A stretch of 64,000 nt of DNA from Escherichia coli (lineage in GTDB: Bacteria; Pseudomonadota; Gammaproteobacteria; Enterobacterales; Enterobacteriaceae). Positions 11,800 through 37,227 of the stretch are shown here, one piece after another. The notes beneath the pieces were generated by a model. The model ran no database searches, was not told the DNA's origin, and worked only from the letters and a program-made list of their open reading frames with translations. The position numbers and the translations under genes are program-made. The DNA is taken from the NCBI RefSeq assembly GCF_003334815.1, contig NZ_QOWO01000002.1. One strand, written 5' to 3'. Each line of letters begins with the position of its first letter. The stretch's first letter is position 1.

Positions 11800-11900
<101 letters not shown>

Positions 11901-16945: not shown

Positions 16946-16947
<2 letters not shown>

Positions 16948-16976
16948 AAAAAAGCCCGTCCAGTGGCGGACGGGCA
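16946..16976 (-). terminator. Intrinsic terminator (reverse strand, after ybiJ/REP cluster; may also act on hcxB)
   Basis: GCCCGTCC...GGACGGGC hairpin preceded on + strand by A8 (U8 on reverse strand). Confidence 0.65.
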
Positions 16977-17054
16977 AACAAGGGTAACATAGGATCAATG
17001 AGGGTTAGAGCATATGCGTCTGTCGGCAAACAGACAGGGAAATACTTGTGCTGG

Positions 17055-17172
17055 ACGTAGCGTAAACGCCTGATCCGTCCAACGGTTCGGATTTTGTAGG
17101 CCTGATAAGACGCGGTAGCGTCGCATCAGGCATCTGTTGCCGGATGCGGCGTAAACGCCTTATCCGTCCTAC
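17055..17172. repeat. REP (repetitive extragenic palindrome) cluster between hcxB and ybiJ
   Basis: Repeated GCCTGAT...CGCATCAGGC and TGCCGGATGCGGCGTAAACGCCTTATCCG units. Confidence 0.8.
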
Positions 17173-17175
17173 GAA

Positions 17176-17436
17176 TTACTTATAAATTACCGCAGTACCG
17201 CTTAATTTATTGTTGTTGGTGGCGGAAGTGATGCTGTATCCACTGGCACCGGCTGCCGCGGCTTTCTCAGCCAGTTTCGCTTCCAGGGCATCGAGGGTGG
17301 ATGCGCCATCGGCAGAAACCACGCCGATTTTATTCATGTTCTGTGCCTGGGATGCCGTTACCGGTTCCGCCGCGAACACGCCAAATGACAGAGTTGAAAG
17401 AGCCATAGCAGCAACAACAGTATTGATAGTTTTCAT
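17176..17436 (-). CDS. ybiJ: Small secreted DUF1471/YhcN-family protein YbiJ
   Basis: ORF track 86 aa; signal peptide; clear paralogue of mcbA in this window. Confidence 0.9.
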   Translation of the reverse strand: MKTINTVVAAMALSTLSFGVFAAEPVTASQAQNMNKIGVVSADGASTLDALEAKLAEKAAAAGASGYSITSATNNNKLSGTAVIYK

Positions 17437-17700
17437 AATTAATCTCTCGCAGGTGATTTTTGTATAAGTGACGTTGTTTCGTCGATGTGATGAGTATCAC
17501 GTTTTTTTACGAGAGATAAAATCGAAGAGAATTGACCGCCTTGTTCAAATAAATTGATTGATATCTAACCTACTGATAAACCATTTATTTGTTGTACTTA
17601 TGAACTTGTTTTATACCGCGTGGCAGTCACAGCAGCGTTAAAGGCACGGAATGACACGCAAAATACAAATTATACTCGCTATGCATCTCGCCAGTTGTAG

Positions 17701-17967
17701 TTAACGTAACTGGCTGTCTTTCGAACCTCTGCGATTATATCCTGTATAAGCTGGTTTTTGTAAATCTTTCTCCTGCTGACAATGAATACATAAGCGCACG
17801 CCAGGAATGGCTTCCCGACGGGCCTGCGGGATGGGGGCACCGCACTCTTCACATTCATCCAGGCTTTCGCCGCGCGGAATTTCACCCCGAGCGCGGGCAA
17901 TCGCATCTTCAATTGTACTGTTGATCTGTTCGTTGACGGCGTCATCGTTAGCCCAACCGGATGCCAT
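17701..17967 (-). CDS. ybiI: DksA/TraR-type C4 zinc-finger protein YbiI
   Basis: ORF track 88 aa; CxxC...CxxC (CEECG...CIHCQ). Confidence 0.85.
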   Translation of the reverse strand: MASGWANDDAVNEQINSTIEDAIARARGEIPRGESLDECEECGAPIPQARREAIPGVRLCIHCQQEKDLQKPAYTGYNRRGSKDSQLR

Positions 17968-18040
17968 ATCGACCTCCCCATATCAATACTTGTACAGTTA
18001 AGTGTAGCTAATCCAGGGACGAACTCGGGCAGTTCAAGCA

Positions 18041-18718
18041 TCAGATCTCCGACCATTCCCGCAGCAGATTATGATAAAGATTAAGCAGCGACAGGATCTC
18101 TTCACTTTCGCCGTAGCGGCTTTTCAGCGACTGAATATTGTTGTCCAGTTCAAACAGCATGGCGCGCTTTTTATCATCGCGGATCATCGACTGGATCCAC
18201 ATAAATGATGCCACTCGTACGCCGCGGGTTACGGGTGTCACGCAATGCAGGCTGCTGGAGGGATACAACACGAGATCGCCTGCCGGGAGTTTTACCCGAT
18301 GTTGTCCGAAGGTGTCATTAACGACCAGTTCGCCGCCGTCGTAGCTTTGTGGATCGCTTAAAAACAGCGTGGCAGAAAGGTCAGTACGCATCCAGCCGTT
18401 TTGTGGATGGCTGCGTACTGCGCCATCCACATGGAAACCATAGGTTTCATTGTTCTGATAGCGATTAAACAGCGGCGTGGAAAGGGTACGCGGCAAGGCC
18501 GCGGCAAAGAATAAAGCATGTTGGTTAACCGCGTTCAGCACCTCATTTTGCAGGGCGGCGTATAACGTGCTGTGGGTGTCGACCTGTTGATTGTTCTTAA
18601 CTTGCGCACCTTGTGCGCCGGTGGTGACGCGTCCATCCACCCATTCGGCTTGTTCCAGTTGTTCGCGAAAACGAGCGACGTCCTGTGGCGATAACACGCC
18701 GGGAATGTGGTACATCAT
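18041..18718 (-). CDS. ybiX: PKHD-type Fe(II)/2-oxoglutarate-dependent hydroxylase YbiX (PiuC-like)
   Basis: ORF track 237 aa; start trimmed to MMYHIPGV (225 aa); HxD motif (FHVDGA); 41 nt downstream of fiu. Confidence 0.85.
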
Positions 18719-18759
18719 ACAATTTCTCCAAAAAGTGGGGCCTGCGCCCCACATCTGAA

Positions 18760-21042
18760 TCAGAAATGCATATTGGCTGTGAGCAAGAAGGTTCTTGGCT
18801 CGCCCGGGTGATAACGGTAGCCGCTCTTGTTGATTGAGGCGACGTAATCGGTATCAAACAGGTTGTAAACGTTTAGCTGGAAGTCGAGATTGCGATTAAC
18901 TCGATACCCCAGTTTGGCATCGGCGACCCAGTAACCTTCGGTAAACGCTGGCGTTCCCACCGCGCCGTCTGAACCTTTATGCATACTGCCGATATAGCGT
19001 GCGCCCGCGCCAACAGAGATATCGTCGGTTGCCTGATATTGGCTCCATAAGGTGAAGGCGTGCTCCGGGGTATACGGCAGCGATGAGGAACCATCCTGGG
19101 CAACATCTTTGCCGTTTTTGATGGTTGCTTTTTGCTGGGTATAGCCGCCAATCACCTGCCACGCGGGAGTGATATTCCCGGCCACGGATATCTCATAGCC
19201 TTCGACGCGTTTCTTACCGTATTGCGAGTAAGTTCCGTCATCATTTTGCTCAACTTCATTTTCGATATCAGTGCGGAACAGCGCGGCGGTGAGCAACAGA
19301 CGTTTATCCAGAACCTGCCATTTGGTGCCAATCTCGCTGGTGTTGGCTTTTTGCGGTTTAAAATCGGTGCGGTTGGCACTGTTACCGCTGCCAGACTGCG
19401 CAAGGGCGAAGTTGTTGCCGCCCGGAGGCTGCTGGGAAACGGCATAGTTAATATAGACATTGCCGTTTTCCGTCAGGTGATACAGCGCCCCGGCTTTCCA
19501 GTTCATCAGATTGCCCGACTTGGCGGTGTCGACGGTGGTGACCGGAGAACCTTTTGCCACACCAGTTGGGCAGGTGATGGCACCGCGTCCGCTGCCGCCG
19601 CAGGCGGTGGCACTGTCATATTCAGTATGATAATTATCCAGACGGATCCCGCCGTTCAGCTCAAAATCACGGGTGATTTGCAGCGTATCAAAGGCGTAAA
19701 TTGCGAAGGTATCCGTCTGACCATTGGCGTTTGCGCCGTTGCGCGTCAGGCCGCCGGGATGAATGCTGCTGTCAGGATGATAAATATTTACCGCGGGTAA
19801 CGTCACCGGATTAACGCCGTAGTTAGTCTGCGTTTCACGGGTAAATTCCACGCCGGTACTGACATCATGACCGATAGAACCGGTATAGAACGTCGAGGTC
19901 AGGTTGGTCTGGTTGGTGAGAATTTTATTACTCACATCTTTGGTATTCGCCGTGCGTGACCAGGTCCAGCTATTCACATCGCTGGTGGGCTGAGTAATAT
20001 TCGACGCCCCGCCCATAATCGCCGTCATCAGGTAATCCTGCTTTACGCGCGACCAACGGGTAGTATTGCGAATGGTGGTGTTATCGTTGATGTCGTGCTC
20101 AAAACGCATGGTGGCGGTGTCGGTGGTCGAATCGTCGTAATCGGAATCCGTGCCGTAAAAGTTATGAGTATCAACTTTTCCGGAATGATTCAGGGCCGCC
20201 GTTCCCGCAGATGGGGCAGAATAGCCCGGCAAACCGATGGTCGGAATGCCGCCGTCTGGCGTGTTGTGCTGGGTGACATGCAGATAATTAAGATACAAAC
20301 GATTCGCTGTACCAAGGCCAAAAGCGACAGAAGGGGCGACGCCGTAACGCTCATTTTTGACTTTGTCGCGTCCGGCATCGTGCGTTTTTTCGCCCATTAC
20401 ATTCAGGCGCACCGCGGTGGTATCACCAATGACCTGATTGACGTCCAGCGTGCCGCGGCGGAACCAGGCGCTGCCAATACTGGCGGAGGCGTCAATGCCG
20501 GAATCATTGCGCGGCTGCTTGCTGATCATATTGATCGAGCCTGTCGGTGCGCTGCGCCCGTAGTCGGTGCCGGACGGCCCTTTAATCACTTCGACCTGCT
20601 CGGTATTGAAGGTGTCGCGCGAGACGCTGCCGATATCGCGAATGCCATCAATATAAATACTGTTAGAGGTATCGGCACCACGCATATAAATGGCGTCGCC
20701 AGTGGTGGAGTTACCGTTCTCACCCGCAAAAAACGCACCCACGCCGGGGACGTTTTTGAGCGCGTCGGTAAGGTTGGTTGCGCCCTGATCTTTAATCACT
20801 TGTTCAGAAATTACCGTCATCGTGCGGGTAGTATCCGCTACCGGACGCGAGAATTTCGGATCGGCAGATTGTTGTGGCGCATAAAGCGAAGGCGTTGATG
20901 CTTCGACAACCAGCGTGTCATCCGCGTTAGTTTGCCCTTCGGCGGCGAGTGCCTGAGCCACAGGCGTGATGCCAATACAAAGACCGGCAAAGAACGTGAG
21001 CGAATGAAATTGTCTGGCAGGGAAATTGCGATTGTTTTCCAT
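18760..21042 (-). CDS. fiu: TonB-dependent catecholate siderophore receptor Fiu
   Basis: ORF track 760 aa; signal peptide, TonB box (DTLVVEA), C-terminal aromatic residue (...NMHF); Fur box upstream. Confidence 0.95.
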
Positions 21043-21145
21043 TTTGCAGGTGACTTTTTCTTATATGTTGAAATTTTCACTGCCACGAGAAAGCCTCTCT
21101 GCGGATGCGATGCCACTGTTAATCCCGTGATAGTGCTCGTGAAAG

Positions 21146-21172
21146 TGATAATAATTTTGATAAGCATTATCA
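21146..21172 (-). promoter_or_regulatory. Fur box in fiu promoter
   Basis: TGATAATAATTTTGATAAGCATTATCA: GATAAT-type hexamer repeats ~100 nt upstream of fiu start. Confidence 0.75.
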
Positions 21173-21306
21173 CTTGGAGCGATTTTCTATCACCCATTGC
21201 GCGAAAAAGAAATACATTTATTTACATTGAGTTCATATTTGATGTTTTTTGATTACAAAACAGACGAAAACTGCATCCAGAGGCGAATGCAGTTACGTTG
21301 GTGGGG

Positions 21307-21567
21307 TTATTTGTAGATGGTTGCAGTACCGAACATCTGGTCATTTCCGCCTGCGGAATTAATGACATAACCTTTCGCGCCTTGTTCGCGCGCTTTTTCT
21401 GCCAGTTTATCCTCCAGATCGCTTAGGTTTGATGCGCCAGTTGCCGAAACGGTACCGGCGGGCCGTAGCTGACCGCTGTCCAGGTTACTCATCGGTTGCG
21501 CGGCATAAGCCGTGAGAGAGATTCCGCTCAGGACGGTGGCAATCAGTAGTGTGAGGCACTTTTTCAT
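21307..21567 (-). CDS. mcbA: Small secreted YhcN-family protein McbA (YbiM), colanic acid/biofilm related
   Basis: ORF track 134 aa; start trimmed to MKKCLTLLIA (86 aa, signal peptide); paralogue of ybiJ. Confidence 0.85.
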   Translation of the reverse strand: MKKCLTLLIATVLSGISLTAYAAQPMSNLDSGQLRPAGTVSATGASNLSDLEDKLAEKAREQGAKGYVINSAGGNDQMFGTATIYK

Positions 21568-21842
21568 AATGACATCCTCATAAATACAACGGGTAGTGCC
21601 TGATAAGTGTAGGTCGCCTGCGCGATGCAAATGACGCAAAAAATTGACAGAGATGTGCTTATTTTTTGAACGATATATTTTTACAAAATAAGACAAATCA
21701 ATGACATGCATAATGCTGATTTTTATGATGAATTGCCATAAACCATAGCCATGTTAAGGTTTTGGGGAATGATAAACGCAGCCAGATATTTACCCTGTCG
21801 CGTTATGCGGGTATCTTACGCCGCTGCTTAAAGGAGAATGCT

Positions 21843-37126: not shown

Positions 37127-37227
37127 GCCTGATGCGCTACGCTTATCAGGCCTACGCAGTACCTGCAATATATTGAATCTGCAGGACTTTGTAGGCCGGA
37201 TAAGGCGTTAACGCCGCATCAGGCATT
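37127..37227. repeat. RIP/BIME-type element downstream of ybiT (direct-repeat partner of 11800-11900)
   Basis: Same REP-IHF-REP arrangement, same orientation as the rhlE copy. Confidence 0.8.

Follow-up and report, generated by a model that had tools for sequence, protein, structure and literature searches.

The DUF1471 proteins are confined to enterobacteria, in which several paralogs, some of them adjacent, are found per genome. Typical members have about 86 amino acids (aa), a predicted Sec signal peptide, a single β-α-β-β domain and the motif G-T-A-x-I-Y-K at the C-terminus. The DUF1471/YhcN family was reportedly described by Rudd and co-workers in 1998. Its many paralogs and its expansion by duplication were set out by Eletsky et al. 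2014 (PMC4092069). Two members, ybiJ and mcbA (ybiM), fit this description with no difference in kind and are carried on a 64,000 nucleotide (nt) stretch of Escherichia coli DNA (RefSeq assembly GCF_003334815.1, contig NZ_QOWO01000002.1), here called the window. The best explanation of the evidence as a whole is that ybiJ and mcbA are the surviving copies of an ancient tandem DUF1471 duplication, with a probability of roughly 80%. A single-domain DUF1471 gene would have been duplicated in tandem in an ancestor of the sampled Enterobacteriaceae, and the spacer between the copies would then have varied by lineage, being empty, holding ybiI, or holding ybiI and fiu-ybiX.

The closest paralog of both proteins is BhsA (YcfR), a multiple stress resistance protein of the same length and with the same motifs (43–47% identity), for which association with the outer membrane and a lowering of copper permeability have been reported (PMC12096828). 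As with ybiJ, the bhsA transcript's 3' end yields a small RNA (sRNA), BhsB, that bears the motif UAACCCUCAUU. The bhsA gene differs in its location at another locus, comR-bhsA-ldtC, and in being 84–92% conserved between genera, which is much more than the pair. The yjfN-bsmA(yjfO)/yjfY cluster of E. coli likewise consists of local DUF1471 paralogs on one strand, although its copies are far more diverged from one another, with about 29% identity, and BsmA has become a lipoprotein. This cluster shows that the family has expanded repeatedly by local duplication. In the available passages of the published family accounts, yjfN-yjfO and yhcN with a ycfR-like gene are given as adjacent pairs (PMC4092069), and the mcbA-ybiJ pair and its adjacency in other genera were not found. 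The paralogy of YbiJ and McbA is already known from Pfam, NCBIfam, EcoCyc-type annotation and two papers, and the statement that YbiJ is a paralog of McbA is made in Sondervorst et al. 2025 (bioRxiv 10.1101/2025.02.11.637708). The additions made here are modest. One is that the pair is directly adjacent in other genera and the other that the fiu-ybiX insert is patchy, and neither was found in the parts of the searched texts that were available.

The two genes and their parts lie in the window as follows.

17176..17436, minus strand: ybiJ coding sequence, 86 aa, stop codon within the coordinates (open reading frame (ORF) list; identity to K-12 b0802)
17371-17436, minus strand: ybiJ signal peptide, approximately residues 1-22
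17179-17337, minus strand: ybiJ DUF1471 domain, residues 34-86
21307..21567, minus strand: mcbA (ybiM) coding sequence, 86 aa (ORF list; identity to K-12 b0806)
21502-21567, minus strand: mcbA signal peptide, approximately residues 1-22
21310-21468, minus strand: mcbA DUF1471 domain, residues 34-86

Both products are identical to their K-12 counterparts, and the window is collinear with E. coli K-12 MG1655 820490-884489. The initial annotation had described two paralogous secreted proteins of 86 aa on one strand, about 4 kb apart, with a Gly/Ala-rich core and nearly identical C-termini, and this observation is confirmed. A distance of 4131 bp, with fiu, ybiX and ybiI in between, separates the start codons, the C-termini are GTAVIYK and GTATIYK, and Ala and Gly make up 31% and 27% of the mature chains of YbiJ and McbA, respectively. 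The 86-aa start of mcbA at 21567 (MKKCL) is backed by the ortholog alignment. The mcbA frame is open further upstream, giving a 134-aa ORF (21307-21711, minus strand), and database entries for mcbA with 104–134 aa exist. No other DUF1471 ORFs were found in the 64-kb window.

Aligned by BLASTP, YbiJ and McbA match without gaps over all 86 residues, with 40 identical (47%) and 52 positives (E 1e-22). The likeness is not confined to the signal peptides, in which 8 of 22 residues are identical (z 3.5), as the mature parts (residues 23-86) have 32 of 64 residues identical and a local score of 144 (z 23). Two short proteins with so much Ala and Gly could resemble one another through a shared signal peptide and low complexity, without homology. 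The probability of this is negligible, however, since 2000 composition-preserving shuffles of the mature parts scored 26.8 ± 5.0 and at most 54. Pfam and NCBIfam models also match both proteins independently, 22 positions are kept in at least 90% of each of the two ortholog sets, and the model of McbA adopts the DUF1471 fold. A likeness by composition only is therefore refuted by shuffles, profiles, conserved positions and fold. The ortholog sets differ by fixed residues at only three positions.

That YbiJ and McbA are DUF1471 family members is established, and the placement in the YhcN/BhsA family that had been suggested from the sequence is borne out by Pfam, NCBIfam, the pairwise statistics and the fold. 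Residues 34-86 of each protein match model positions 1-55, the full model, of Pfam PF07338 (YdgH/BhsA/McbA-like, formerly DUF1471), with E 1.2e-17 for YbiJ and 3e-19 for McbA. The NCBIfam models separate the two, with YbiJ scoring 173.1 bits and McbA only 74.3 on the YbiJ model (NF007611, cut-off 110), and McbA scoring 174.5 bits and YbiJ only 80.6 on the McbA model (NF040473, cut-off 110). Both pass the BhsA cut-off of 90 (McbA 101.5, YbiJ 116.2), which shows how close the trio of YbiJ, McbA and BhsA is. Ten K-12 DUF1471 paralogs were retrieved. Read by pattern, the export signals of both proteins have an MK(T/K) n-region, a hydrophobic core and VFA/A and AYA/A motifs, and a Sec-type signal peptide with cleavage after VFA and AYA is predicted. 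The mature proteins are predicted to be periplasmic β-α-β-β domains of about 6.5 kDa, with the fold modelled for McbA.

In the AlphaFold model of McbA, built from a 50-sequence alignment, strands at residues 36-45, 66-73 and 78-85 and a helix at 48-61 form a domain (residues 36-85) with a predicted local distance difference test (pLDDT) score above 90. Residues 1-23 are unstructured (pLDDT <50), which fits a signal peptide. The top PDB matches of the model are 2jna, 4evu, 2ma8, 2m2j and 2noc, each with probability 1.00. Its fold is matched best by SrfN, YdgH and YahO, whose DUF1471 domains have been solved, and then by RcsF. YbiJ was assigned by sequence matches, among them the solved YahO structures 2noc and 2ma4. 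The likeness of McbA to RcsF is in the modelled fold (Foldseek 2y1b, E 7e-3, template modelling score 0.52, and also the RcsF chain of 9biy) and in phenotype, as mucoidy from derepressed mcbA is a classic Rcs output (PMC4092069). In sequence McbA has about 13% identity to RcsF and is not homologous to it by sequence criteria. YbiJ and McbA lack a lipobox, a lipidated N-terminal linker and disulfide cysteines in the mature part, the sole Cys of the pair being residue 4 of McbA, within the n-region of its signal peptide. RcsF is a fold-level analogue only, because the lipobox that defines it is absent.

The age of the duplication, which had been called old, is evident in the coding DNA. The ybiJ and mcbA coding sequences are 49.8% identical, with 59.8% identity at codon positions 1+2 and 29.9%, which is essentially random, at position 3. 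By the NG86 method the synonymous distance (dS) is saturated and not computable, and the nonsynonymous distance (dN) is 0.62. The same codon is used at only 14 of the 40 identical amino acids. A blastn comparison of the genes with their promoters and 3' flanks gave no homology beyond a 67-nt stretch of coding sequence (the LE-KLAEKA block). Saturated synonymous sites and the loss of all flank similarity agree with an old event. In comparisons with five genera dN/dS is low, at 0.00–0.15 for ybiJ and 0.06–0.30 for mcbA, and both genes are therefore under purifying selection. Mean distances within subfamilies (McbA 0.45, YbiJ 0.32, BhsA 0.28) show that McbA evolves faster.

The synteny of the pair was compared across GTDB species, each represented by one genome, and the E. 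coli proteins served for mapping. This gave 71 loci, picked by similarity to McbA and all of them in the Enterobacteriaceae, from a search that was not designed for members outside the order, and a Salmonella locus was added. Both genes are present in 62 of the 71 loci, and in all 62 mcbA is upstream of ybiJ on the same strand. The pair lies in the rlmF-ybiB interval in 61 of these; the exception is Citrobacter Res13, in which the contig ends within the interval and ybiJ is taken as present. Within E. coli the arrangement is almost universal, with coverage of the 6-kb region reaching 80% or more in 5417 of 5426 complete genomes. The arrangements found are listed here.

mcbA-ybiJ directly adjacent: 10 loci (Atlantibacter, Pluralibacter and relatives, Tenebrionibacter, two further lineages)
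mcbA-ybiI-ybiJ: 29 loci (Enterobacter, Lelliottia, Leclercia, Trabulsiella, Yokenella, several Citrobacter, E. albertii)
mcbA-fiu-ybiX-ybiI-ybiJ: 20 loci (Escherichia, C. freundii complex, Pseudocitrobacter, Raoultella)
ybiI-mcbA-ybiJ: 1 locus (Franconibacter)
mcbA-(fiu scar)-ybiX-ybiI-ybiJ: 1 locus (Citrobacter Awk4)
mcbA-fiu, then contig end: 1 locus (Citrobacter Res13)
ybiI-ybiJ without mcbA: 7 loci and Salmonella (Kosakonia, Salmonella and relatives)
Single members: mcbA without ybiJ in UBA7338; ybiJ without mcbA in a Pluralibacter metagenome-assembled genome (MAG)

In the 10 adjacent loci the spacer is 302–506 bp in nine and 1041 bp in LSJC7. The absence of McbA from Salmonella has been published (PMC4092069). 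Among the mcbA-less loci are those of Kosakonia (L064, L066, L068, L074, L076) and Salmonella enterica (L078 9245-10261), and no mcbA remnants were found in the Salmonella and Kosakonia loci with the family hidden Markov model on six-frame ORFs. In Salmonella the rlmF-ybiI spacing is only 205 bp and fiu-ybiX is missing as well. The marker tree, made from YbiO, RlmF and YbiB, implies that the mcbA losses in Salmonella and Kosakonia were independent. Three records in the sample are irregular. A contig labelled 'Citrobacter freundii M-21' (L056) groups with Atlantibacter by flanking markers, one 'uncultured Raoultella' MAG has both a C. braakii-identical locus and a Raoultella-type locus (L020, L062) and is therefore a mixed bin, and ybiJ of Trabulsiella odontotermitis is truncated to 74 aa (L059 10940-11161).

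The order, strand and interval in which the pair is kept lead to the conclusion that an ancestor of the sampled Enterobacteriaceae already had it, originally in an arrangement that was a head-to-tail tandem or nearly so. The proposal that the duplication was local is borne out by this synteny, with head-to-tail neighbours in 10 species, and not by the tree. In K-12 the identity of the mature parts is 50% for YbiJ-McbA, 43% for YbiJ-BhsA and 44% for McbA-BhsA, with YhcN next. Neighbour-joining (NJ) bootstrap trees were made from McbA and YbiJ orthologs of nine genera with BhsA orthologs, on 64–86 aligned residues. Each subfamily is monophyletic (84–100% bootstrap), and a clade of McbA, YbiJ and BhsA is separated from YhcN and YahO (79–90%). 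In three deep lineages (Tenebrionibacter, LSJC7, 'bran7') the gene in the ybiJ position branches between YbiJ and BhsA.

Several points weigh against a tandem origin. Within the trio the bootstrap values are 51–55% for YbiJ+BhsA, 29–31% for McbA+YbiJ and 7–10% for McbA+BhsA, and it cannot be claimed from sequence that McbA and YbiJ are closest relatives. It may be that BhsA split off the YbiJ lineage once the tandem had formed, or that mcbA came by another route. The 3' untranslated regions (3'UTRs) of ybiJ, bhsA and yhcN share the motif UAACCCUCAU, and mcbA is without it. The species were picked by McbA similarity within the Enterobacteriaceae, a single-copy ancestral state was not observed, and the polarity of the ybiI and fiu-ybiX insertions and deletions depends on a midpoint-rooted NJ tree. 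The RcsF-like mechanism considered below is drawn from fold and phenotype only.

Some of these points would also fit another origin, in which an early enterobacterial ancestor acquired a bhsA- or yhcN-like copy that had come from a different place or a different genome and landed beside ybiJ. The slight lean of the trio towards YbiJ+BhsA, the absence of UAACCCUCAU from mcbA and the faster evolution of McbA can all be read in this way. Such a landing is nevertheless unlikely, as one strand, order and interval are kept in the loci with both genes, including the directly head-to-tail species, and scars of a transposase or of repeats were not seen. DUF1471 genes are also known to lie in adjacent pairs, examples being yjfN-bsmA in K-12 and yhcN with a ycfR-like gene in Salmonella (PMC4092069). 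A tandem event could also have given rise to a ((YbiJ,BhsA),McbA) topology if a copy dispersed later and became bhsA. The tandem duplication is the preferred reading of the pair in what follows.

The genes that separate ybiJ from mcbA in the window are these.

18760..21042, minus strand: fiu, TonB-dependent catecholate siderophore receptor (ORF, K-12 annotation)
18041..18718, minus strand: ybiX, Fe(II)-dependent PKHD-type hydroxylase (NCBIfam NF003972, 517 bits; synteny)
17701..17967, minus strand: ybiI, DksA/TraR-type C4 zinc-finger protein (NCBIfam NF008243, 160 bits)

The commonest intervening gene is ybiI, found between mcbA and ybiJ in 50 of the 62 loci with both. In only 20 of the 62 is fiu present in between with ybiX, which travels with it, and fiu is no part of the duplication. 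Loci with and without fiu-ybiX are scattered over the marker tree, and absences are nested. E. albertii (L012 6823-6909) has kept only the final 16 nt of ybiX and Citrobacter sp. Awk4 (L013 10369-11564) only the 3' end of fiu, and these leftovers are deletion scars. Several E. coli strains have IS421 in the 41-bp fiu-ybiX spacer (O157:H16, L085 2305-3417). The fiu-ybiX module is an unstable, patchy passenger. The description of the pair as bracketing the fiu operon is true of the window, but the arrangement is not conserved, as fiu-ybiX is absent from about two thirds of the pair loci. Because the spacer is a hot spot of insertion and deletion whose content varies by lineage, the bracketing is an accident of a variable insert, and the 4-kb separation in E. 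coli is secondary and not functional. A GC-rich hairpin with a T-run lies between the fiu stop and the ybiX start (window 18735-18752, minus strand) and looks like a terminator or attenuator within what is usually drawn as a single operon.

Two features lie between mcbA and fiu.

21255..21294, minus strand: terminator-like hairpin (10 bp) with a U-rich tail directly after mcbA (RNA fold)
21140..21193, minus strand: fiu promoter region, AT-rich, with GATAAT-type Fur-box-like repeats (GTGATAATGCTTATCAAAATTATTATCAC)

The hairpin has a folding energy of -15.9 kcal/mol (z -4.0), and none of 200 shuffles was as stable. Homology between E. coli and Citrobacter 3' of mcbA stops at about 21266. A promoter-like site is present at 21193-21166 upstream of fiu. 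No match to the strict 19-bp Fur consensus with up to three mismatches was found anywhere in the window. The repeats in the fiu promoter are looser GATAAT ones only, and fiu is generally known as a Fur-controlled gene. The ybiJ gene has an upstream region of its own of 264 bp and a 3'UTR of about 230 nt that carries a repetitive extragenic palindromic (REP) element and the sRNA ZbiJ. The genes ybiJ and mcbA are separate transcription units, each with its own flanking signals.

If the bracketing were functional, the DUF1471 pair with Fiu and YbiX would make the five genes one iron and envelope module. The RcsF-like fold of DUF1471 proteins and their proposed interaction with outer-membrane proteins (PMC12096828) could be taken in favour of this, as could the position of bhsA, which is also near TonB-dependent receptor genes. 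In K-12 fhuE is 7.5 kb from bhsA (L002 1-9331), and in Klebsiella pneumoniae a receptor gene near bhsA lies directly beyond comR (L081 1-1758). Such a module is very improbable, however, because about 40 of the 62 loci that keep both paralogs are without fiu-ybiX, which has been lost by simple deletion while the paralogs remain. In addition, the mcbA hairpin stands as a terminator of its own ahead of the fiu promoter, and in the literature mcbA and fiu have different regulators, McbR and Fur, respectively. A functional module with fiu was rejected, since fiu-ybiX is dispensable for the pair in most genera. The neighbourhood of DUF1471 genes and TonB-dependent receptor genes (bhsA; mcbA/ybiJ with fiu) is a recurring one that may well be due to chance.

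Downstream of ybiJ the following features are found.

17099..17169, minus strand: REP-type element between the ybiJ stop and ZbiJ (Rfam naRNA4, RF02564, 78.4 bits)
16946..17042, minus strand: ZbiJ sRNA, 3' end of the ybiJ transcript (K-12 annotation b4814)
16997-17007, minus strand: motif UAACCCUCAUU in ZbiJ, conserved and predicted to be single-stranded
16954-16975, minus strand: ZbiJ terminator, strong (terminator scan)

The REP element in the ybiJ 3'UTR is found in Escherichia only. It is not at this site in Citrobacter, Enterobacter or Salmonella, in which the ZbiJ core is 13–95 nt past the ybiJ stop. This element also accounts for the 11 places (median) at which megablast finds matches in an E. 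coli genome. Elsewhere in the window Rfam ES036 (CssrF) matches after rhlE (11821-11863, minus strand, 43.3 bits) and after ybiT (37148-37190, minus strand, 41.6 bits), and both matches are probably REP-derived.

ZbiJ and BhsB have both been verified, ZbiJ by northern (PMC8175672), and a link between the two is not drawn in the available passages of that paper. The ZbiJ fold has an energy of -28.5 kcal/mol (z -5.3), with the motif predicted to be unpaired. ZbiJ and BhsB (bhsA 3'UTR, L002 9304-9403) have an exact 11-mer in common, TAACCCTCATT, which is unique in the window, and their local alignment score is above those of all 500 shuffles. The score of the mcbA 3' region against ZbiJ is inside the shuffle range. 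When ybiJ 3'UTRs of 10 genera are aligned, the core AACCCTCATT does not vary, and it exceeds the coding sequence in conservation. If one mismatch at most is allowed, the motif follows 48 of 69 ybiJ-type genes and none of 63 mcbA genes. Among bhsA genes, those of E. coli, Salmonella and Leclercia are followed by it and those of Klebsiella and Buttiauxella are not. The K-12 yhcN stop codon leads directly into TAACCCTCATC and then a terminator, with UAACCCUCAUC beginning at the stop codon (L003 10800-10860).

The presence of a shared motif after ybiJ, bhsA and yhcN is a hint of an ancestral 3'UTR RNA element kept in three of the four closest paralogs. A tentative proposal, with the odds somewhat against it, is that the ancestral gene of the YbiJ/BhsA/YhcN/McbA subgroup had a regulatory RNA in its 3'UTR, that ZbiJ and BhsB are paralogous sRNAs with a shared seed, each copied with its host gene, and that mcbA, as the upstream member of the tandem, was severed from the element where the duplication joined, or lost it, and became an RNA-less copy controlled by McbR. 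Pairing of ZbiJ with the mcbA ribosome-binding site, by which the sRNA of one paralog would control the other, was also tested and dropped, as mcbA ranks 34th of 43 window genes by duplex energy.

Away from the pair, the first 49.9 kb of the window differ from K-12 MG1655 at 129 positions. Of these, 116 are in the first 2000 nt (ybhL-ybhM-ybhN), which look like a recombination patch from another E. coli lineage. The genes ybhL and ybhM are neighbouring paralogs of the Bax1-I family.

Expression of mcbA is repressed by McbR/YncC, and derepression leads to colanic-acid overproduction and less biofilm (PMC4092069, PMC12096828). Acid and other stresses induce ybiJ, and YbiJ-msfGFP is enriched in the envelope (bioRxiv 10.1101/2025.02.11.637708). 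DUF1471 proteins are like RcsF in fold, and it has been proposed that they act in common by interacting with outer-membrane proteins (PMC12096828; bioRxiv 10.1101/2025.02.11.637708). YbiJ and McbA may act in the periplasm as stress-induced modulators of the state of the outer membrane and envelope. This could be through RcsF-like contacts with outer-membrane proteins or through the Rcs relay, which they might feed into or partly mimic, and such a route would account for McbA-driven mucoidy. Subfunctionalisation of YbiJ versus McbA may have been mainly through regulation and a few surface residues.

The shared 3'UTR motif could offer a testable, if small, example in which sRNAs were duplicated with the genes that host them. 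For the locus itself, the picture gained is of a tandem pair pushed apart by ybiI and the patchy fiu-ybiX, with mcbA lost in Salmonella and Kosakonia. The E. coli gene order gives no functional link of YbiJ or McbA to Fiu. YbiJ, McbA and BhsA are near-equidistant and may be partly redundant, therefore single-gene knockouts may hide phenotypes.

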